DNA from: a virus
Lineage: Duplodnaviria > Heunggongvirae > Uroviricota > Caudoviricetes
Virus record (IMG/VR): IMGVR_UViG_3300029653_000081
Location: 1 to 34,518 of that record
Reading direction: 5' to 3' (one strand)
Length of the DNA: 34,518 nt
In this document: positions 16,474 to 31,381 of the stretch, piece after piece
Numbering within the stretch: the stretch's first letter is position 1
Layout of the letters: every line of letters begins with the position of its first letter
The notes under the pieces: generated by a model
The model's database searches: none
The model's input: only the letters and a program-made list of their open reading frames with translations
Told to the model about the DNA's origin: nothing
Program-made: the position numbers and the translations under genes

Positions 16474-17371
16474 GCACTGGAAAAATATTACTATTTATAA
16501 ACTTTCTCGTGAGGCGGATCTGACCGACTTAGAAGATAAAAAGAAAATGATCCTTTTCACGCCATGCGGTAGTCAGGATATGGCCAAGTTCGGTTTTGTA
16601 TCGCCATTTGGTGATAATTCCGAAGTTATCGCTATGCATGGAAATGGTTTTATCCTTGTTGAAGCAAAGCGCGAAACAAAAATTCTTCCCCCGCCGGTTA
16701 TCCAGCGAGCTATTCAAGAAAAAATTGAAAAACTTGAGCAAGAACAAGCGCGTAAACTGAAGAAAACAGAGAAGGACTCCCTGAAAGACGAAGTTCTGCA
16801 TTCTCTTCTGCCACGGGCTTTTTCAAAGTTTTCTGTTATCCAGGCGATCTACGACGGTTCAACTAAACGTATCTATATCAATGCCAGCGCGCGGCAGGCA
16901 GAGGATATGCTCGCGCTTATGCGTAAGTCTCTGGGTTCTCTTCCTGTTGTGCCACTAAGTGTTGAAAATCCCATTGAGTTAACGCTGACCGACTGGGTAC
17001 GTGATGCTAGTGCTCCACAGGGATTTCAAATGGGGGATGCGGCAGAACTTAAGGCAGTGCTTGAGGATGGCGGTATCGCCCGAGTGAAAAAGCAGGATTT
17101 GGGAAGCGATGAAATTTCCACACACCTGGAAGCTGGCAAGCTCGTCACTAAGTTGGCACTCGACTGGCAGAACCGCATTAAATTTACACTGGACCATAAC
17201 TTCAGCATTACCAGCGTCAATTTTGCGGATGAATTGCTTGAGCAGAACTCTGATATTGATAGTGAAGATGTTGCGCAGCGACTGGACGCAGATTTCTTCC
17301 TATTGACCAGTGAAATTTCGTGCCTGGTTGATGCTCTGGTAAATGCCCTTGGTGGAGAGGCTAAGCAGTGA
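16466..17371 (+). CDS. rdgC: RdgC-family recombination-associated protein (P1 hrdC-like)
   Basis: 301 aa from [15 protein letters not shown]; [38 protein letters not shown] and GSLPVVPLS closely resemble E. coli RdgC as recalled. Confidence 0.8.
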
Positions 17372-20250
17372 AAGAGCTGTGCTATGGATCTGTTTGCAGT
17401 GGAATTGAAGCCGCGAGTATTGCCTGGGAACCGTTGGGTATGCGTCCGGTTTGGTTTGCTGAAATCGAGCCTTTTCCATCGGCCGTTCTTGCGCTCCGCT
17501 GGCCCCATGTCGCCAACCTTGGCGACATGACAAAACTTGCCAAAAAAGTCTTGGCTGGGGAAATCGAATCCCCTGACGTGCTCGTCGGGGGAACACCATG
17601 TTTTACCGCGGGGCATATGGTTCTTTGTAAAAATGGTTATAAACCAATAGAAGATGTTTGCCCTGGCGATTACGTAGTCAGTCATCTCGGGCGGTTACAA
17701 CAAGTAAAAAGAGTTGGTTCAAAAATAGCTAATACGGGGTTACTTAATGCCGTTGGGCAGCCTTTAGGTATAAGAACAACCAATGACCATCCCTTCCTGG
17801 CTGTTCGGTGGAAAGCCCAAAACACCCGGAAAAATGGCACATATTTTAAGAGAGAGTTGTTGTCTGAACCGGAATGGCGAGCAGCATGTGATATGCCGGG
17901 ATATCAATGGTGCGCTCTAACTAATTTCAATATTGCATCTCCAGATATTTGTTCTCGGTTCTTGTCTGAAGAACAGGCTATGTATCTTGCGGGCGCTTAT
18001 GTTGGCGATGGATATATTAGGAGATGGAGAGGTAAATCTAAGAAGGCGGTTGTTTTTGGCATAAATTGCCAGAAATTGAGAAAGTTTCATTGCCGCATAC
18101 CAGAAAACATATTTTCCGTGGCAAGCGAAATCCGAGGGAGCATCAAAGTAACCTTGAATGATACGTGTTATGCCAATTGGCTTAATGAACATTTTGGCGA
18201 GTTAAGCCATGCTAAGCGTATCCCTGCATGGGTGATGTCGCATCCATTGCGTCATGTGTTTTTACAAGGCTATCTTGATACTGATGGGACACCAAGTGGT
18301 AAAGCGGGATTTAGAATTAATAGTGTTAGTCCTGCGCTTGCTTGGGGCGTTGCGGGGTTGTCACAGACTTGTGGTTATGTTTCTTCGGTCAGCTTTATTG
18401 AAGTTGAGCCCAAAAAAGTGATCGAGGATCGCGTGGTAAATCAACGGAATTATTATCAGGTAACAATCTGCCCGCAGAAATTGTCACGTAAATCAAGATT
18501 GGCTCATGGAATGCTTTTACGAACAGTCAAAGAGTTTAAATCGGTAGGCCTAGATACTGTATACAACATAGAAGTCGAAGGTGATCATTCCTATATCCTC
18601 AATGGTGCGGTGGTCCATAACTGTCAGGCATTCAGTATCGCGGGATTACGTGGTGGGCTTGATGATGAGCGTGGCGCGCTAACTTTAAAGTATGTGGAGC
18701 TTGCAAATGCAATTGACGACAAACGGGCTGAGTCATTTCTCAAACCAGCCGTTATTGTCTGGGAAAATGTCCCAGGAGTCTTGTCATCGGCAGATAACGC
18801 CTTCGGATGTTTCCTTGCCGGATTGGCTGGAGAAGATGCGCCATTTGAACCAGGTGATCGACCTGAATCAGGAAAAAGTAACGCGTTCTGGCGGTGGGAT
18901 GGCAAAACCGGTTGCCATGCTCCAAAGTGGCCGCAGTGTGGTTGTATTTATGGGCCGCAGCGAAAGGTGGCCTGGAGAATCCTTGATGCCCAATACTTCG
19001 GAGTGGCACAACGACGCCGACGCGTGTTTGTTGTCGCAAGTGCTCGAACAGACCTCGATCCCGCAACGGTACTTTTTGAGTTCGAAGGCGTGCGCCGGGA
19101 TATTGCGCCGAGCAGAGGCGAGGGGAAGGAAACTACCAGATATACTTCAAACATCGCTATCAGATCTTGCGATGATACAAACATAGTTGCCATGGCACAT
19201 GGGCAAGGAGGGGCTGAGATAAAAACCGATAATTCGGCACCAACTTTAACATGTAACCATGAAGCACCAATTGTATTGCTCGGCGACGGTAGAATACGCC
19301 GTCTTACCCCTGTCGAATGTGAAAGGCTGCAAGGTTTTCCTGATGGGCATACGTTGATCCCTACGGAAAAGCGTAAAAAAGTTTCTTCAGATGAACTGGC
19401 ATACCTTCGCAATAACTATCCTGATTTAAGCGAAGAAGAGGCCGCGATGCTTGCAGCTGACGGACCGCGTTACAAAGCGATCGGCAATAGTATGGCAATA
19501 CCAGTAATGCGCTGGATTGGCGATCGGATTACTAAGGCCGTATGTCGGCAGAAAGAAGGAAGTGAAACAAAAGAGCGAAAAGTTAAACCAGCGGCAGAAT
19601 TCGAACGGTCCATATTCAAATGGGCTGGTGGAAAATTTGGTGTTCTGGAACAAATCTTTCGCTATTTGCCAGAAGGGAAGCGCCTGATTGAACCTTTCGT
19701 TGGTGGCGGAGCTGTCTTCATGAATGCCGGATACCAGGAAAATCTGCTAAATGATGTGAATGCTGACCTGATTAACTTTTACAAGACTCTGCAACGCGAG
19801 GCGCATTCACTTATCACTCTGGCACATCGTTTCTTCCAGGACTACAACACACAGGAAGGATACCTGGCAGTACGGAATGCGTTTAACAAACAAGTCTATG
19901 ATGATTTACATCGCGCAGCGGCGTTTTTGTTCCTGAACCGACATTGTTTTAACGGATTGACGCGTTACAACCAGGCCGGTGAGTTCAATGTCGGTTATCC
20001 GGACATGAGTCTCGATAAAGCATGCGGTATTTATCACGGCATGCGAATTGAGCTTAAAGAACCAAATGGTAAAGCCCCGACGAAAGAGCAGATCGCCTGG
20101 ATGCGCAGGCTTAGAGAGGAAGGTTACTACGTCGTTCTTGCGTATGGTGCAGAACAAGCGATAACCGCCATCCTGGAATACATAAGCCTTAAAAAGGGTG
20201 AGGCTATTGAGCATGTATTGAACGGCGACAAGTGGTTGTATGCCACTTAA
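17368..20250 (+). CDS. dmt: Dmt-like multidomain DNA methyltransferase: C5-cytosine MTase interrupted by an intein, then a Dam-like domain and a nuclease-like tail
   Basis: GTG start coupled to the rdgC stop. C5-MTase motifs: [13 protein letters not shown] (split), [33 protein letters not shown]. Dam-like segment FKWAGGK...[10 protein letters not shown]...[23 protein letters not shown]. No DPPY-type motif anywhere in the protein. Confidence 0.85.
17599..18621 (+). other. Intein (341 aa) with LAGLIDADG homing-endonuclease motifs inside dmt
   Basis: Begins Cys (CFTAGHMVL), ends VVHN, followed by Cys+1; contains [11 protein letters not shown] and [10 protein letters not shown]. Excision would join GGTP to CQAFSIAG, restoring motif IV. 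Confidence 0.8.
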
Positions 20251-20316: not shown

Positions 20317-20472
20317 GTGTCATTCAAGGTTAATTATGAATCGCTGGCATCGATCATGCCGCGTAATGAACAGGAAGCAGATGCTGTAGTGGACCCGGTA
20401 ATCGCTGAAATGAATGCTCGCCTGGAGGCTGAATTTGCAGCTGAGAATGAACATACCACCCAGGGCGACTAG
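20317..20472 (+). CDS. Small acidic hypothetical protein (about 51 aa)
   Basis: GTG preceded by GGGAGA; tracked ORF starts earlier at 20275. Weak evidence. Confidence 0.25.
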   Translation: MSFKVNYESLASIMPRNEQEADAVVDPVIAEMNARLEAEFAAENEHTTQGD

Positions 20473-21076
20473 GACTGTTTTTTGTGTCGGTAGCGGTCCG
20501 TCACTCACTCGTGAGGACTGTGCTGCTATAGAAAAAACTGGCTGTTCAATCATTGCGGTTAACAATTCCTGGCTGATGTTCGATGACATTTATGCCTTAT
20601 ACGCCGGTGATTTGTCATGGTGGAAGCAATACGGTTCCACCATACCGGGAGGGAGGTTCCGCAAAGTGACAGCCAACCTGGCGGCGGCGAAATCATTTTC
20701 GTTGGAGTACAGGCGATATTGTGGACCGGCGGAAGGGGTAAATAGCGGCGCGCAGGCTATCAGTCTGGCTGCTGAATCAGGGGCTGAAGTAGTGGTATTA
20801 GTCGGCTATGACTGTTCTCTGCAAAACGGCCTTCATTGGCATGGCGCGCACCCTCAAGCCCTACGGAATCCAACGCAGGTGTCTATTTCAAAATGGCAAC
20901 AGCAGTTCCTGGATACCCGCAAAAAACACGCAGATTTACATATTTTGAATGCAAGTAGGAGCAGTGCAATTCAATGTTTCCCAAGAATAAATTTAGAGGC
21001 AGTGATCGCGTTATTATCGTCGGCAGTGGCCCAAGCGCCGCAAACTTTGTTGCGCCGCGCGGAGTGCCGATTATAG
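20444..21076 (+). CDS. Rossmann-motif protein, paralog 1 (possibly DUF115/MptE-like transferase)
   Basis: N-terminal VFCVGSGPS, IIAVNNS, and NSGAQAISLAAESGAEVVVLVGYD; paralogous to the next gene. Family assignment is from memory. Confidence 0.5.
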   Translation, partial: RMNIPPRATRTVFCVGSGPSLTREDCAAIEKTGCSIIAVNNSWLMFDDIYALYAGDLSWWKQYGSTIPGGRFRKVTANLAAAKSFSLEYRRYCGPAEGVNSGAQAISLAAESGAEVVVLVGYDCSLQNGLHWHGAHPQALRNPTQVSISKWQQQFLDTRKKHADLHILNASRSSAIQCFPRINLEAVIALLSSAVAQAPQTLLRRAECRL

Positions 21077-21600
21077 CGGTCAATGGGGCTATCGACTGGC
21101 TTAACCGCGCTTCTTATTTTTTCACCCTTGATCCATCCCCAGACAATATGCGGCGCGTTGGTCGTGGCCGCCGTCGCCGTGGTGTTTGTTATTGCATGGC
21201 ACTACCCGATGTTAAAGAACGTGAAGTCAGAGATGGCGTTCTGTGCTTCCGTCGTGTGGCTGAACGCGGCACAGAGCCAAAAAATACGAATTCTCCCGAG
21301 TGGTGGGCGTGGCGCTGGTCCGCACATTTCGGCCTTTGCGAAGATGAGAATGAAATTGCCAGCGGCAATAGTGCATATGGTGCTCTGAACCTGGCTTTCC
21401 ATATCGGATTCAAACATGTAGCCCTGGTGGGCGTTGACGCTACGCAAGAACTACGCGTTCACTCCGGCGGCACGCCAAAAAATCTAAGTCACCTGCCTTT
21501 GTTATTCCAGTCTGCGCGTGAACAGATTGACGTTGTTTCATGCGGGAAAATGGGAGGTATTCCGCAGATGACTCTTAAAGAATGGCTGAAGAATACATGA
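20974..21600 (+). CDS. Rossmann-motif protein, paralog 2
   Basis: [40 protein letters not shown]; its start overlaps the 3' end of paralog 1. Confidence 0.5.
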
Positions 21601-22274
21601 TGGCACCCACAATTTATCACCGTATCGACGGTACCAAATACAGGAATGTCTGGGTTGTTGGTGATCTGCATGGTTGCTACACCAGACTGATGTCCGAACT
21701 CCATCGTGTGGATTTTGACCCGGCGCAGGATTTACTGATATCGGTCGGCGACCTTATCGATCGCGGTACTGAAAATGTCGAATCTCTGGAACTATTGCAG
21801 ATGCCCTGGTTCAGGGCAGTAGTGGGGAACCATGAGCTGTTGATGCTCGATGCGTTAAGTCCTGATGGCAACGTGAATAACTGGCTAATGAATGGCGGTC
21901 AATGGTTCTTCATGCTGGACGCTGATCAGGAAATATTAGCCAGGGCGCTGGTGGAGTTGGTAAGACGACTGCCCTATATCATTGAGTTGAACACCGGGCA
22001 AGAAACTATCGTTATAGCCCATGCCGACTATCCGGATAATGAATATCAATTCGGTAAGGAGGTGCCGCTTTTCAACGTTGTCTGGGCGCGCGAGCGTATC
22101 AGTGATTCGATGGATGATATTGGTGGCGAAATTTCGGGCGCAGATCGTTTTATCTTTGGTCACACTCCGGTGAAAAGCCCGAAGACATTCTGGAATCAGC
22201 ATTATATCGACACAGGTGCCGTATTTTGCGGAAACCTGACATTGAAGAAAGTGAAAGGTGATGGTGCAGCATGA
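21582..22274 (+). CDS. Lambda-type Ser/Thr protein phosphatase (metallophosphatase)
   Basis: GDLHG, GDLIDRG and GNHE motifs; start may be ATG at 21597 or 21600. Confidence 0.85.
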
Positions 22275-22971
22275 AGATTGCTTTAGTTCTTCGCTCTGGT
22301 GGTGACTATAACGCTTCCGATGTGCAGTGGCTGGTTAATCAACTGCCAAAAGACTATGAAATTATTTGCCTGACAGACCTGAAGTGTTTACATGTACCTG
22401 GCGTCAAAGTTATCCCATTGATCAACCAGTGGCAAAAGTGCCGTGGCTGGTGGGCGAAAATCGAGTTGTTCCGACCGGATATAACCGATGATCTGTTCTA
22501 TCTGGATTTGGACACGGTTATTGCCGGTGATATACGCCCAATCCTAGAGAATCCACCAACCAACTTCACCATGCTTAGGGATTTTTACCATCCACAATAT
22601 CGTGGCAGCGGGGCCTGTGGATACCAAATAGTGTAAAAGCGCATATCTGGAGTGCATTCTGGCAAGATCCGGAAGGTTGGATTGCTCGTTGTGTTACTAC
22701 TGAATGCTGGGGTGATCAGGGGTTTTTGCGGAAGGTTATGGGTGATGATACACCAGCATTTCAGGATCTGTATCCGGGATGGTTTGTAAGTTACAAGGCC
22801 GATGTTGTGGAACCTGGTTCGAAATATGCGAGCGCGCGTTACTCCAGGGGGAATGGGGCATTACCAAAAGACTGCCGAATAATCTTTTTCCACGGCAAAC
22901 CGCGACCTCGCGAAGTGTCAGAGGATTGGATTCCCCTTACCAGCTCGTTTTTTGAGCAAGTATCAGAATAA
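22271..22971 (+). pseudogene. Glycosyltransferase-like gene (DxD motif) split by a one-base frame change
   Basis: Frame 2 (22271-22636) contains YLDLDTVIAGDI; frame 1 is open from 22579 and continues to 22971 (..ECWGDQGFL..). The frames overlap around a G4 run at 22610-22613. Confidence 0.5.
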
Positions 22972-22972
22972 T

Positions 22973-22989
22973 ATTGCTCTAATAATTCC
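22973..22989 (+). promoter_or_regulatory. C1 repressor operator, left member of an inverted pair
   Basis: ATTGCTCTAATAATTCC; the 5' 13 nt match the consensus. Confidence 0.7.
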
Positions 22990-22997
22990 ATATTTTT

Positions 22998-23027
22998 AAA
23001 ACGTGATGTACACTCATCACGTTTTTT
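22998..23027 (+). terminator. Rho-independent terminator between the operator pair
   Basis: aaaacgtgatg-tacact-catcacgtttt (11-bp stem) followed by tt. Confidence 0.7.
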
Positions 23028-23038
23028 ATTAGAGCAAT
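23022..23038 (-). promoter_or_regulatory. C1 repressor operator, right member of the inverted pair
   Basis: Minus-strand ATTGCTCTAATAAAAAA; arrangement resembles bidirectional paired operators described for P1. Confidence 0.7.
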
Positions 23039-23052
23039 TTACAAGGTGCACT

Positions 23053-23271
23053 ATGTGGCCATTCCGACGGAAATATCACTACTGGCTGATCGCCTTTGTT
23101 ACGCCGACCGGCGGTATCAGGCATGTCATCACCAGGTATCGCAACAAGAGACTCACCTTAGCCAGAATTTTACAGGCTGCCATAGGTGAGGGACTGGATA
23201 CAAATTGCGTAGTCCTTCCTCCTTCATACTTAGGAAAAATGACCGAAGCACAAGCTAATACGGAACTTTGA
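23053..23271 (+). CDS. Small basic hypothetical protein (72 aa)
   Basis: First ORF downstream of the operator pair; no motif recognised. Confidence 0.35.
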   Translation: MWPFRRKYHYWLIAFVTPTGGIRHVITRYRNKRLTLARILQAAIGEGLDTNCVVLPPSYLGKMTEAQANTEL

Positions 23272-24607: not shown

Positions 24608-25114
24608 TTGAGTATTTTCAATAAACACGCACACCAGGAACGTCCGTACATCGTCATAGTAGATATTGATGGGACGATATCAGAGGCAACGGAAGACAGG
24701 CTGCATTTACTTCCACCACCTGGCAAAGGTGCATTAACAGAGCACTGGAACGAGTTTAACCTTGCCTGTGACACTGATGCTCCCATCACTCCAGTTATTG
24801 ATATGGTGCGCCAGTTATTTAACGTTTACACGGTCTGGTTTGTAACCGGGCGCTGTGAGATCGCAAGGGATAAAACACGAGCCTGGCTGCGGAAGTACGT
24901 AACAAACGGGGCTGAGCCTTTGCTATCTATGCGTCCTGCCACCGATGACAGAAATGACGGTCCAGCAAAGATTGATCTCCTGAAGAAAATTGGTCTAAGT
25001 AAAATTGCGTTCGCGCTGGAAGATAAGATTGAAGTGGCGCGTGTGTTCAGGAGTCATGGCGTACTTACATTAATGGTCAGGGAGTATGAAAATGCGCTTC
25101 TTCATCAACAATAA
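24608..25114 (+). CDS. HAD-superfamily phosphatase-like protein (168 aa)
   Basis: TTG start 6 nt after AGGAGG; motif I IVIVDIDGT and motif II-like WFVTGR. Confidence 0.55.
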   Translation: MSIFNKHAHQERPYIVIVDIDGTISEATEDRLHLLPPPGKGALTEHWNEFNLACDTDAPITPVIDMVRQLFNVYTVWFVTGRCEIARDKTRAWLRKYVTNGAEPLLSMRPATDDRNDGPAKIDLLKKIGLSKIAFALEDKIEVARVFRSHGVLTLMVREYENALLHQQ

Positions 25115-25378: not shown

Positions 25379-28300
25379 CTATATTTTTCCGCCTACGCCT
25401 TTAAACTTCTCAATAAACGAGACGATTTTCTGGAAAACTGCCTGTTTTTTCGTTTTATATTGCGGATTCAACGGACTAAGTTTTGGTAATGTTTCGTTTA
25501 ATTCTGTGCCATTTTCGGTGGCGTATTCGCGTTTTAAAGACGTGCGAATATAGCGTTTTGCTGCATCTTCATTGAGATTTTCTTCTTTTATCAATGCTTC
25601 TGCTTCACGTTGCTGTTCGCGTTGAGCAAACGTAAAGAATGCCTCAATGATACTGGCTTTGTCTGGTAAATCATCCAGGTTCGTTTGCTGAATAAAATCG
25701 ACCACCAGGCCCTCTTTCGCCCGGTTCCCCAGGCTTGAACGAATTAAGCGTTTGACCTCTTCGATCATTTCGCCCTTGCCTTTATTTTGTCTGTTGTGTT
25801 CGAAAATCAGTCCAAGGATATAATCCAGGTTTATTTCCTGAGACTTCAGCAAATCGACCTCAAAAACCACGTCATCCCAGTCAGTGGTTGATTTCTCTTT
25901 TTTCTCAGCTTCTTTCTCACGGCGCTGCCAGTCGCGAATATCGTTATAGGCAGAACGATAATCCTGAATCTTGCGATCAGCAGGGAGACGAATTGTTTGC
26001 AATTCAGCGAACTTTTCATCATCCACATAATGTTCTGCTTTGAATTTTTCTACCGCAACAGGATCGCTAAGATCGATTTGTTGCAGGGCTTTTAGCGTGG
26101 CAAATTCATCATAGTTTTGCAGGATGTTCTCGGCACGCAGGTATTCGCCAAACAGTTTAACGAAGTCTTTCTTCTCTTTTTCACTTTCAATACTGGCAGG
26201 GTCAGGGAACCGTTGTTCCAGTTCTGAAACTACTGCCATAAAGCCGCGTTTGGCTTCACCGGTGGCAGCATCAGTAAAACCTTCCATATACTCTGCATAA
26301 CTCTTTTCTAACACCACATTTTTGGTATTTTTATCACCAAACAGCGTTATGGCATCAATGGTTGAGCGTTCCAGATCCCGAAAAGTGACAATGTTACCGA
26401 AGGTTTTAGTGGCGTTATAAATGCGGTTGGTGCGGGAAAATGCCTGCATCAGGCCGTGAAAACGCAAGTTTTTATCGACGAATAGCGTGTTCAATGTTGG
26501 AGCGTCGAAGCCGGTTAAAAACATCCCAACGACAATTAACAGATCGATATCCTGATTTTTAACCCGTTGGGCTAAATCGCGATAGTAGTTCTGAAAACCG
26601 TTACCGTCGGTGCTGAAGTTAGTTTTAAAATAGCTGTTATACTCACGAATTGCAGCGTCAAGAAACTCTTTAGCACTGCTGTCCATTGCGCTGGTATCAA
26701 AAGTTTCATCGGAAATTTCACCAATGGCATTTTGTTCTTCATTAGCGGCAAAGGAGAAGATTGTCGCAACACGCAGCGGTTTATAAGTTGCAGATTTATT
26801 AGCGGCTTCCTCTTGTAACCGTTTAAACGCCGCGTAATAGGCTTTTGCAGCATCCACGCTGCTCACTGCCAACATAGCATTAAAACCTTTTGCGCCAGGG
26901 AAAGTACGGTGCGTCTTCTGGCGGAAGTTATTCAGAATATATTGCGTAATTTCCTGTATACGCATGGGATGAAGAAACGCCTGCTGATTTTCAGCCGCAC
27001 TTAGTTTTTTCTCGTCAGTTTCTGTCTCTAAAGACTTAAACTGTGGCCGCACATCGTTGTAGTCCACCTTGAATTTGAGCACTTTTTCATCACGAATCGC
27101 ATCGGTAATTACATACGAATGCAATTCACGACCAAATACGCTGGCGGTCGTTTCTGAGCCTAAGGCGTTTTCCGGGAAAATAGGTGTGCCGGTAAAACCA
27201 AACTGATAATAGCGTTTGAATTTCTTCTTCAGGTTTTTCTGCGCTTCTCCAAACTGGCTGCGGTGGCATTCATCAAATATAAACACCACTTGCTGATTAT
27301 ATACAGGCAGGTCGCTTTCTGCTTTCATCAGGTTATTGAGTTTCTGAATAGTAGTGACGATAATTTTGTTATCGTCCTTATCCAGATTTCGTTTAAGGCC
27401 TGCGGTATTTTCCGAGCCGTTGACGCTGTCTGGCGAAAAACGCTGATATTCCTTCATGGTCTGGTAATCGAGGTCTTTCCTGTCGACCACAAAGAAGACT
27501 TTATCAATAAAGTCCAGCTCTGTTGCCAGACGCGCGGCTTTAAAGCTGGTGAGGGTTTTACCAGAACCGGTAGTGTGCCAGATATACCCACCGCTTTCCG
27601 GTTTTGACCAGTTCTTCGCTGTAAAGGAACTCTTAATTTTCCACAGAATGCGCTCGGTGGCGGCAATCTGGTACGGTCGCATCACCAGTAGCGTCTGACT
27701 ACTGTCAAAAACGCTGTAGTTCACCAGAACATTCAGCAGAGTATGTTTCTGGAAAAAGGTAGCGGTAAAGTCTTTGAGGTCTTTAATCAGCGTGTTGTCT
27801 GATTTCGCCCAATTCATGGTGAAGTCAAAACTGTTTTTATCGCGCTTTGTCGTGTTGGCAAAATAACGGGTATCGGTGCCGTTAGAAATGACAAACAGTT
27901 GCAGATACTTAAACAGGGAATTTTCGCTGTTAAAACTCTCTTTACTGTAACGATGTATCTGGTTGAAAGCCTCACGAATCGCCACCCCGCGTTTTTTTAG
28001 TTCGATTTGCACCAGCGGTAAACCATTAACCAGGATCGTGACGTCATAACGGTTAGCATGAGAACCCGTCTGTTCAAACTGCTGGATAATCTGCACCTTA
28101 TTGCGCATGAGATTCTTTTTATCTATCAAATAGATGTTCTCAAGTCGCCCGTCATCAAAAATAAAGTCGCAGATATAGTCGATATGGATTTTACGGGTTT
28201 TATCCAGAATACCATCGCTGGGGTTGTCCAGATACTGCTCCGTGAAGCGCCGCCACTCGCTGTCATTAAACATCACACCATTGAGGCTCTGAAGCTGTTC

Positions 28301-28495
28301 CCGAACATTGGACAGCATTGCCGACTGTGATTTTACGGAAATAAATTCATAACCCTGATTTTGCAGGTCCTGAATCAGTTCACGTTCCAGGTCCGATTCG
28401 CTCTGGTAGCTGTCGCCTGTTGGCTCAGCTTTGATGTACTTATCAAGAACGATAAAGTTATTGGATTCAGCAATGGTGTGTGTCTGATGAGTCAT
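25379..28495 (-). CDS. hsdR: Type I restriction enzyme R subunit HsdR (1038 aa)
   Basis: Helicase motifs TTGSGKT and [10 protein letters not shown]; size and position after hsdM-hsdS. Confidence 0.9.
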
Positions 28496-28616
28496 AGCGC
28501 ATCCTTTGTGCCGTCTGGCAAGGGCCGGAAGGGGGGTAATGGTGACTTCCGGCGCGTAAAAAATAGTCTATATACTGACCGGGTGTTAAGGTGGTCCGAT
28601 CGGTAGCAATGATCAA

Positions 28617-29822
28617 TTAATTACTGGCAGTTTCAGGTTTCGGGAAACTGAACAGTAAATCACGGTAGTATTCGTATTGTTTCTGGCGCAACTCGATTTC
28701 ACGCGGAAGACCTTCGGTGATGGAAGCTGCGATTGCATCAAACTTATCCAGAATATCCACAATACGCCCCTGTTCGTCTAAAGATTTTTGAGGGTGAGAT
28801 GGGTATGGAATAGGTACTCTGACTTGTTTCAGTGCATTAGCATTAAACTGTGGTTGCCCACCACCAGATACTAATTTATTAGCCTGTTCCCAAAAAAAAT
28901 CACTTTGTGCAAAGTGCCAGTAATATTTGGCATTAATAATCGTTTTATTTAGGTTCAACTTTATTAAAAAACCAGCGTATACTGCTGGATAATCTTCTTC
29001 AAAAATCATTGTTTTACCAAAGGTTGCCCCAGTTCTTGCCATGAGTAAATCATTTTTGTCTAAGGTATATTTCTCATTTTCCTCATTTAATTCAACGTAC
29101 ATTGGGTTTTCTTTCGATAGCTTCCCGTCTTTATTTATGTCAGTAATTCTCACGAAACGGGCATCTCCTGAATCCATGGCTTTGGCTGCATATCCATATG
29201 TAAAATCTCCAATTTCCCCCAAAGTCTTCCACTCAACCTCACCATCTTTAAAACTCAACAACTGGTCGCGATAGTAGTTGTACTGTTTTTTACGCATGTT
29301 AAGCTCAGCGGTAAGCTCAGCGGTAAGTGCAGTAAATTTATCCAGAATCCGAACGATTTCAGACTGGATGGCAAGGGATTTTTCCGGATTATCCGGGCAG
29401 GGGATGGGGATAGGGAAATTCTCTAAGGTTGATAGCACGATATATGTCATTGCCGCGCTATTTGTTCTTTCCTCGAGATATTTCTTCAGGCTATGGCTAA
29501 GCACAAAATACAAAAATCTAACACTTACATTTTCGTCGAAATTTGTCAGAACATAGGTGCGCTGATAAGCCTCAAACTTGCCGATGTAATGCTTCACCTC
29601 ACCAACATTCGCATTGCCTGCAATCAGCAATGCCTCTGTATCCCAGCGGAATTTATCAATTTTGCTTGTCTCTTTGGCTGTCGTGAAGAACATATACTCT
29701 CCATCATCAACAGCCGCATTCGCATTAAGCTTTCCTGTTTCAATTTTGCAAGTTTGCCCAAGTGTCTTCCACTCAACCTCAACCCCATCCAGCAATTTTT
29801 CCAGATAACTCATCTCGCTCAT
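28617..29822 (-). CDS. hsdS: Type I specificity subunit HsdS (401 aa)
   Basis: Two target-recognition halves each ending in a conserved repeat ([19 protein letters not shown] and [19 protein letters not shown]); 4-nt overlap with hsdM. Confidence 0.85.
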
Positions 29823-31381
29823 TTCTGCACCTCGCAGCCTTCAATTTCAGCCACAATTGCATCAATATCTTTACGCAACTGGTCGATTTTGCTGACCGTG
29901 GTTTTCAGCTCTGCATTCAGCTCACCGATATCGATAATTTCGCGGTTATCTTTCGCTTCCACATAGCTGCTCACCGACAGGTTATAGTCATTCGCGACAA
30001 CAGTCTCAAACGCAACAGATTTCGCCAGATGAGCAACATCTTCCTTGCTGGCAAATACCTGCATAATCTGTTCGATATGGGCATCGGTCAGGATATTGTT
30101 GTTGGTTTCTTTTTTGAACAGTTCGCTGGCATCAATAAACTGAACTTTGGTATCCGTTTTATGTTTAGACAGCACCAGAATGTTTACAGCAATAGTGGTG
30201 CCAAAGAACAGGTTCGGTGCCAGTGAAATCACGGTTTCGACATAGTTATTATCGACCAGATACTGACGGATTTTCTGCTCCGCGCCGCCACGGTAAAAAA
30301 TACCCGGGAAGCAGACAATCGCAGCACGACCTTTGGCCGAAAGATAGTTCAGCGCATGTAGTACAAACGCAAAGTCAGCTTTGGATTTGGGGGCCAGGAC
30401 GCCAGCCGGGGCAAAACGTTCATCGTTAATCAGCGTCGGGTCATCGCTGCCAATCCATTTCACCGAATACGGCGGGTTAGAAACGATGGCATCAAACGGT
30501 TTTTCATCTCTGAAGTGTGGCTCAGTCAGTGTATTACCCAGCTTGATATCAAACTTGTCGTAGTTGATGTTGTGCAAAAACATGTTCATACGTGCCAGGT
30601 TATAGGTTGTATGGTTGATTTCCTGACCAAAAAAGCCTTCTTCGATGATATGGTTATCAAACTGCTTTTTAGCCTGCAACAACAGTGAGCCGGAACCCGC
30701 TGCCGGGTCGTAGATTTTGTTAACGTTGGTCTGCCCGTGCATAGCCAGTTGTGCAATCAGCTTGGAGACGTGCTGCGGTGTAAAGAACTCACCGCCTGAC
30801 TTACCGGCATTTGCCGCATAGTTAGAAATCAGGAACTCATAGGCATCACCGAACAGGTCAATCTGATGTTCGTTGAAGTCACCAAGTTTTAACCCTTCAA
30901 CCCCTTTCAGAACCGCAGCCAGGCGGGCATTTTTATCTTTAACGGTGTTACCCAGGCGGTTACTGGTGGTATCGAAATCAGCAAACAAACCTTTGATGTC
31001 TGCTTCTGAAGGGTAGCCGTAAGCAGAACTTTCGATAGCAACGAAGATGCTGTTTAAATCTGCGTTCAGTCTGTCATTGGTATTTGCTTTCGCAGCTACG
31101 TTGCAGAAAAGCTGACTGGGGTAGATGAAGTAGCCTTTAGTTTTGATGGCATCGTCTTTAATGTCATCAGTAATTACGCTGTCATCCAGTTTCGCATAAC
31201 AGATACTGTCATCACCGGCTTCAATATAACTGGAAAAATTTTCGCTGATAAAACGGTAGAAAAGTGCGCCCAGAACGTATTGCTTAAAATCCCATCCATC
31301 GACCGAACCCCTGACATCGTTAGCAATTTGCCAGATTTGACGATGAAGCTCTGCACGTTGTTGAATACTTGTCATTTTCAT
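29819..31381 (-). CDS. hsdM: Type I N6-adenine methyltransferase HsdM (520 aa)
   Basis: NPPY motif ([10 protein letters not shown]) and AdoMet-binding [11 protein letters not shown]. Confidence 0.9.

Follow-up and report, generated by a model that had tools for sequence, protein, structure and literature searches.

In the 34,518-nt stretch of viral DNA analysed here (hereafter the window), the intact gene ppp, encoding a lambda NinI-like Ser/Thr phosphatase (21582–22274, plus strand; PF00149 Metallophos), is followed in the same operon by two overlapping reading frames on the same strand. The first, in frame 2, comprises 121 codons (22271–22636, plus strand), begins with an ATG that overlaps the ppp stop codon (ATGA at 22271–22274), as in phage P1, and ends ...HPQYRGSGACGYQIV. 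Its residues 1–115 are native and carry the motifs VLRSGG, GWWAK and DxD (D79-L-D81), after which six out-of-frame residues (CGYQIV) lead to a premature TAA reached in the shifted frame (22634–22636, plus strand). The second, in frame 1, lies behind a TAG at 22576–22578 and is open from 22579 to a stop codon at 22969–22971; it contains what were codons 116–233 and the stop of one longer gene (22615–22971, plus strand), including the GDQ (148–150), S174/K176 and H208-G-x-P-x-P motifs. Gene callers list a residual 77-codon ORF starting at Met157 (22738–22971, plus strand) as a separate gene. This layout agrees with the sequence-only reading, which had placed the end of frame 2 at 22636 (...RGSGACGYQIV*), open frame 1 at 22579–22971 and a GGGG run at 22610–22613. 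Downstream, an intergenic region (22973–23038) holds the C1 operators OpmgRa (22973–22989) and OpmgRb (23022–23038) and the promoter PpmgR, all placed from the P1 annotation and carried over by alignment, followed by pmgR (23053–23271), which has PpmgR as its own promoter, and by pmgS.

Similarity searches revealed that both frames jointly match a single 233-aa gene, known as pmgQ in phage P1 (P1_gp091, YP_006557.1, 702 nt) and as hdmD in phage P7 (YP_009914562.1), which spans both frames and is unbroken in relatives. DNA identity reached 96–97% to P1/P7-type phages and 99.7% to approximately 30 plasmids for the pmgQ region, and the matches were each one base longer than the window (862 versus 861 nt, and 702 versus 701 nt). 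As these one-base-longer matches all lead to one 233-aa gene, we concluded that the split is a genuine frameshift in a known gene and not two ORFs paired by chance. The repaired protein matched PHROG 1962 ('glycosyltransferase') over residues 1–233 (E = 6.6e-126) and is similar to the PmgQ/HdmD family over its full length, and the position of the gene after ppp and before the C1 operators and pmgR–pmgS is conserved with P1. The window copy therefore shares with P1 pmgQ and P7 hdmD its neighbours, the ATGA overlap and the 233-aa length of the repaired product. In contrast to both, it carries a net −1 nt lesion, which interrupts the frame of about 233 codons after codon 115 and leaves only a truncated product of 121 aa, and it is best classified as a pseudogene within the PmgQ/HdmD family (PHROG 1962).

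At the lesion site (22610–22615, plus strand), the window reads GGGGCC where approximately 1,300 relatives read GGTGCCC in the alignments (CGGTGCCCTG in relatives versus CGGGGCCTG in the window). The ancestral codons AGC GGT GCC CTG TGG ATA CCA (S G A L W I P) have become AGC GGG GCC TGT GGA TAC CAA ATA GTG TAA (S G A C G Y Q I V stop) or, seen in another register, CGG TGC CCT G in P1, P7 and the closest plasmids has become CGG GGC CTG. The ancestral sequence has no run of four G; the run at 22610–22613 arose from a T>G change at 22612, which is synonymous (GGT>GGG, Gly114). The lost base is best assigned to the CCC run, of which CC remains at 22614–22615, although the whole lesion can equally be written as TGC>GG, with the same net loss of 1 nt. 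An extra G in the run, as had been proposed as the repair, would restore the frame, but would yield Gly115 instead of the native Ala115.

Apart from these two changes, the 701 nt agree fully with the closest intact alleles, carried by CP080059 and about 29 other plasmids. The intact allele WP_000684869.1 (e.g. NZ_CP080059.1 p655Rt_p0111) is identical at 699 of 701 window positions in an alignment of 702 columns and agrees with all residues of both window fragments except the six out-of-frame ones, so that the difference is limited to GGTGCCC in the intact and GGGGCC in the window copy. Since both changes are confined to three bases and the gene is otherwise identical, we infer that they arose in one complex mutational event. 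Single-step intermediates (T>G only, delC only) gave no match in IMG/VR, and the T>G-only form likewise gave none in the genome collection. The DNA of the 3' remainder is 100% identical to that of intact alleles, which points to a recent frameshift. The premature stop itself depends on the lineage: the window lineage has AGT GTA AAA around it, and in P1-type alleles with GTT at that place the shifted frame would run on with no stop there. Folding of the region 22570–22660 (DNA parameters) was no better than that of shuffled sequences (z = 0.52). The same held for derived and ancestral 91–92-mers, the mutation slightly weakening the fold, and these shuffle-level folds spoke against a quasi-palindrome or hairpin origin as well as a stimulatory structure.

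The label 'glycosyltransferase-like', given earlier from the letters and translations, was borne out when GT8 enzymes were matched by both profile and fold. At E ≤ 1, neither the repaired protein nor the two fragments matched any Pfam family, Glyco_transf_8 included, and the assignment came from profile-versus-PDB and fold searches. The 120 homologues listed, extending down to 31% identity, are nearly all 190–240 aa long with a query coverage of at least 90%, and the largest full-length PmgQ cluster has 2,479 members. Comparison with homologues had been suggested as a check on the junction; the distant ones were all single proteins of 190–240 aa, and none showed two genes at this place. An alignment of 68 homologues revealed that conserved motifs flank the break on either side, namely VLRSGG, GWWAK and D79-L-D81 with invariant D79 and D81 in the N-terminal half, and G148-D-Q150, S174/K176 and H208-G-x-P-x-P213 in the C-terminal half. 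The homologue profile matched the Skp1 alpha-galactosyltransferase 6mw5 (E = 3e-8) and glycogenin (approximately 5e-5), pairing DLD with DAD, GDQGFL with GDQGLL and FHGkPRP with HFLGQTKPW, and D79/D81 aligned to the DAD of both 6mw5 and glycogenin.

An AlphaFold (AF2) model of an intact relative (P0001) formed a single compact domain (pLDDT 95.3, pTM 0.91), for which Foldseek retrieved 6mw5 as the top match (E = 4.5e-9), followed by glycogenin, LgtC, GlyE and XXYLT1, with TM scores of 0.5–0.6; the GT-A fold assignment thus holds for the model of this intact relative and not for the broken copy in the window. PmgQ shows the GT-A fold, DxD motif, GDQG-type loop and C-terminal His-x-G-x-x-(K/R)P in the same order as the retaining GT8 enzymes (6mw5, glycogenin, LgtC), although identity to these is only 11–17%, PmgQ is shorter, and its domain is broken in the window copy. 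Taken together, profiles and model support the prediction of a single-domain GT8-like (GT-A) glycosyltransferase for intact PmgQ. The frameshift after Ala115 falls inside strand 111–118 of the P0001 model, with the DxD motif before it and the GDQ and FHGxPRP motifs after it, and the catalytic motifs of the second half (148–150, 208–213) are out of frame in the window product. In GT8 enzymes such as glycogenin and LgtC, the GDQ and C-terminal His motifs serve sugar binding and metal coordination. Because the GDQ loop and the C-terminal His motif are absent, the 121-aa product is predicted to be without transferase activity. Further upstream, the pmgO and pmgP genes (20414–21076 and 20974–21600), which precede ppp, showed weak, sub-threshold MptE-like (PF01973) matches, and RefSeq names pmgO an 'alpha-2,3-sialyltransferase'. 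Judging from these matches, the C1-controlled operon with pmgO/pmgP and the GT8-like PmgQ may constitute a small glycan-modifying module.

The frameshift had been put down either to an assembly homopolymer error or to a real inactivating mutation. According to the first view, the true gene is intact with 233 codons and a base was lost in sequencing or consensus calling. This view draws on the absence of the allele from the curated complete records searched (19 phage, 681 plasmid and 675 E. coli genome records), the best matches among which share 99.7% identity with the window and have one extra base. Exact 37-mer scans for the allele also gave no hit in IMG/VR, in GTDB-representative genomes (one per species) or in JGI metagenome contigs, while as a control the ancestral 32-mer was present in 110 IMG/VR contigs versus none for the derived form. 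Moreover, other P1-like records, such as ON470615 and ON470617, show obvious error-type truncations of pmgQ. However, the exact 121-aa product was found in 26 index blocks of a large assembly collection, and the same allele DNA recurred on no fewer than 23 contigs, assembled independently from at least nine sequencing runs, among them SRR7534320, SRR5024506, SRR4897177, SRR25145532, ERR3372793, ERR10115316, SRR35963515, SRR31599457 and SRR6185874. A cluster look-up of the 121-aa product gave 18 contigs with JGI/IMG, Logan and ENA as sources, and the lesion site was identical in all nine loci whose sequence was compared.

The contigs bearing the allele span three structural backgrounds. The first has the dmt::pmgM deletion junction of the window (L008 and L009, with nine similar places), the second has intact pmgL and pmgM (L007 and L011, with five similar places), and the third (L013) has a patch of nine SNPs in pap (24661–24724). 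These nine clustered pap substitutions are the sole difference between L013 (SRR35963515) and the window, and by their clustering they look like a short recombination patch. Within the approximately 21–25 kb alignable to P1 or to plasmid CP080059, the pmgQ lesion is the only frame-breaking indel, all other indels of the window being intergenic, in-frame (12 nt, hsdS) or a compensating pair in a divergent hsdS region. The lesion also combines a substitution with a deletion, differing at two positions from an ancestral context, GGTGCCC, that is not a homopolymer. Since the allele recurs across contigs and backgrounds and no other indel breaks a frame, a private homopolymer miscall appears to be excluded as far as assembled contigs allow, and we consider a sequencing or assembly error highly improbable. 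The second view, a real inactivating mutation, is upheld by the occurrence of the allele both with and without the neighbouring deletion and by the lack of a credible restart. On the strength of these contigs the allele is a heritable variant, which would either predate the dmt::pmgM deletion or have moved between backgrounds via recombination. Nearly all supporting contigs match the window without a single difference (100% identity) and may thus derive from one clone that was widely sampled, not from a long-lived lineage.

If the mutation is real, the gene could still function in two parts, with the 121-aa N-terminal fragment and a separately initiated C-terminal fragment cooperating, or with the N-terminal fragment having gained a new role, e.g. 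nucleotide-sugar binding or dominant-negative action. The 77-aa downstream ORF is indeed called in every copy, and two half-length PHROGs match PmgQ, phrog_37963 ('unknown function') its N-terminal half alone (residues 1–107) and phrog_16955 ('unknown function') its C-terminal half alone (residues 116–225). These families are, however, most simply understood as collections of such broken copies, and they were probably built from frameshifted pmgQ fragments and not from real separate proteins. The intact downstream start that might have accounted for the split offers no rescue: frame 1 holds no ATG or GTG upstream of TTG 22726 and ATG 22738, and the latter lies 102 nt beyond the stop, has a Shine-Dalgarno-like GGAAGG just 2 nt before it, and would skip the conserved GDQ. 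Residues 116–156, with the near-invariant GDQ among them, are missing from the 77-aa ORF and present in neither piece. Furthermore, the break would lie within a core beta-strand of one compact domain according to the model, and distant homologues are never split. A functional split gene is accordingly very unlikely in our judgement.

The window allele is not the only truncated pmgQ. At least four other independent truncation alleles are present in public data (P0009, P0025, P0023 and P0029). Like the window copy, all of them are frameshifted versions of this dispensable gene carried by P1-like elements, although their lesions differ from that of the window and are independent of it. P0009 encodes 172 aa, has 71 member sequences and carries G4>G3 in CTGGGGTG, equivalent to window positions 22709–22712; its source is L127 (GCA_900449175.1, UGCH01000002.1). 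P0023 has a 10-nt deletion (GCGGTGCCCT) equivalent to 22608–22617, which covers the lesion site of the window, and comes from a single metagenome scaffold, L126 (ERZ28644738 scaffold_5326). One allele of the set leaves the native frame after TML at residues 100–102, as judged from the protein sequence only. With the window included, there are at least five independent truncation alleles, two of which strike the same 10-nt stretch.

Such recurrence could mean that PmgQ is costly in some hosts and its loss adaptive, or that this 10-nt stretch is unusually mutable; the size of the P0009 group and the span of the P0023 deletion speak for this. Nevertheless, the truncations are a small minority compared with the full-length cluster of 2,479 members, the ancestral 32-mer found in 110 IMG/VR contigs has no derived counterpart there, P0023 is known from one metagenome scaffold, and neither a repeat nor a hairpin accounts for a hotspot. 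Neutral decay of a dispensable gene suffices to explain the data, which makes adaptive loss or a hotspot an explanation that we hold to be highly improbable. The more general proposition that pmgQ is a recurrent inactivation target in P1-like plasmid prophages fares slightly better but is still very unlikely; were it true, the GT8-like transferase would be costly or counter-selected in some hosts, or the site a local mutational hotspot, and the allele could mark a decaying, increasingly plasmid-like P1 lineage.

The least tenable explanation is programmed recoding, in which −1 ribosomal frameshifting or transcriptional slippage at the G run would yield the full-length protein: the frames do overlap by 58 nt with the G4 run inside the overlap, and re-reading one G gives an in-frame product, but the overlap (22579–22636), read in frame 2, contains no X XXY YYZ slippery heptamer, no stable local structure accompanies it, and relatives use a single frame without the G run, so that we give this explanation practically no weight. 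Zero-frame reading splits the run as C|GGG|GCC, where tRNA-Gly finds perfect re-pairing only in the +1 direction, which is no rescue because it leads into the dead frame 3 and to a TAG there. Four G are far too few for slippage of RNA polymerase. The two-frame layout is not kept in relatives.

The element around the gene has been altered as well. Window positions 19297–19997 match the middle of dmt, and from 19993 onwards the sequence matches the 3' part of pmgM, placing a deletion junction at 19993–19997 (plus strand) at which approximately 10.9 kb are missing relative to P1. The missing genes comprise the dmt 3' end, three tRNA genes, plp, upl, tciABC, ban, dbn and pmgL, as well as the tail and baseplate genes 5, 6, 24, 7, 25 and 26. 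The junction creates an in-frame fusion ORF (17368–20250, 960 aa) in which the D12 methylase domain breaks off at position 134 of its 253-position profile; it was present in none of 565 matching PLSDB plasmids and in the Logan contigs L008 and L009. Genes 6, 24 and 7 are scored as essential in P1 in the table of PMC10695390. From its gene content, the element should be unable to make tails and is best described as a defective P1-like prophage-plasmid.

Two further features of this element were observed. An insert of about 1 kb (17601–18622; approximately residues 77–420 of the ORF 17368–20250) lies in the C5-methylase part of Dmt, is absent from P1 and present in plasmid CP080059, and gave Pfam matches to Hint_2 (E = 2e-6) and LAGLIDADG_3 (E = 2.5e-7), which suggests an intein with a homing-endonuclease domain. 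Between pap and phd/doc, in place of the P1 pmgT–humD segment, the window contains a complete type I restriction-modification cassette (25379–31381, minus strand) with hsdR (1038 aa), hsdS (401 aa) and hsdM (520 aa); compared with CP080059, its hsdS has an in-frame indel of 12 nt and a region of divergent sequence.

Regarding the consequences of losing pmgQ, the table of PMC10695390 lists an EOP of 1.4 for CRISPRi against P1 pmgQ and scores the gene as non-essential, and the same table gives it as non-essential by knockout with reference to PMC9024508. Of the 29 deletions made in that knockout study (PMC9024508), essentiality was seen only for pmgA, B, C, G and R; the main text of the paper does not mention pmgQ by name. 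The intergenic region 22973–23038 differs from P1 at one base, and a 101-nt alignment contains two differences, one of them in the pmgQ 3' end. As the C1 operators and PpmgR are near-identical to those of P1, polarity on pmgR and pmgS is not expected. The sequence shows a hairpin with a T run behind it at about 22999–23027, and a terminator scan after pmgQ called none; the argument that pmgQ is the last gene of its operon consequently rests on the P1-annotated PpmgR and operators. Given that pmgQ is dispensable for P1 growth and is the last operon gene before the separately promoted pmgR, its loss can be expected to be tolerated, and we infer that it is neutral.

Overall, we consider the pmgQ frameshift real, inherited and recent, an ordinary pseudogene of a known dispensable gene in a P1-like phage-plasmid, with a probability of roughly 0.9. 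A small complex mutation (GGTGCCC>GGGGCC, net −1 nt) in a single circulating lineage would have shifted the frame after Ala115, with translation ending six codons further on in a 121-aa product that would keep the nucleotide-binding half with its DxD motif, while the 3' part would remain untranslated or give at most a 77-aa remnant. The allele would have been tolerated owing to the dispensability of pmgQ and its place at the end of the operon, and the frameshift would have preceded the 10.9-kb dmt::pmgM deletion, which would further cripple the element in the window.

For annotation, this reading means that the 121-aa and 77-aa ORFs represent one pmgQ/hdmD pseudogene and not two hypothetical proteins. 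The locus would be a modest example of prophage-plasmid domestication, offering nothing new on mechanism, in which the allele and the dmt::pmgM deletion together would mark a P1-like sublineage in which tail genes have been lost and decay towards a plain plasmid is under way.
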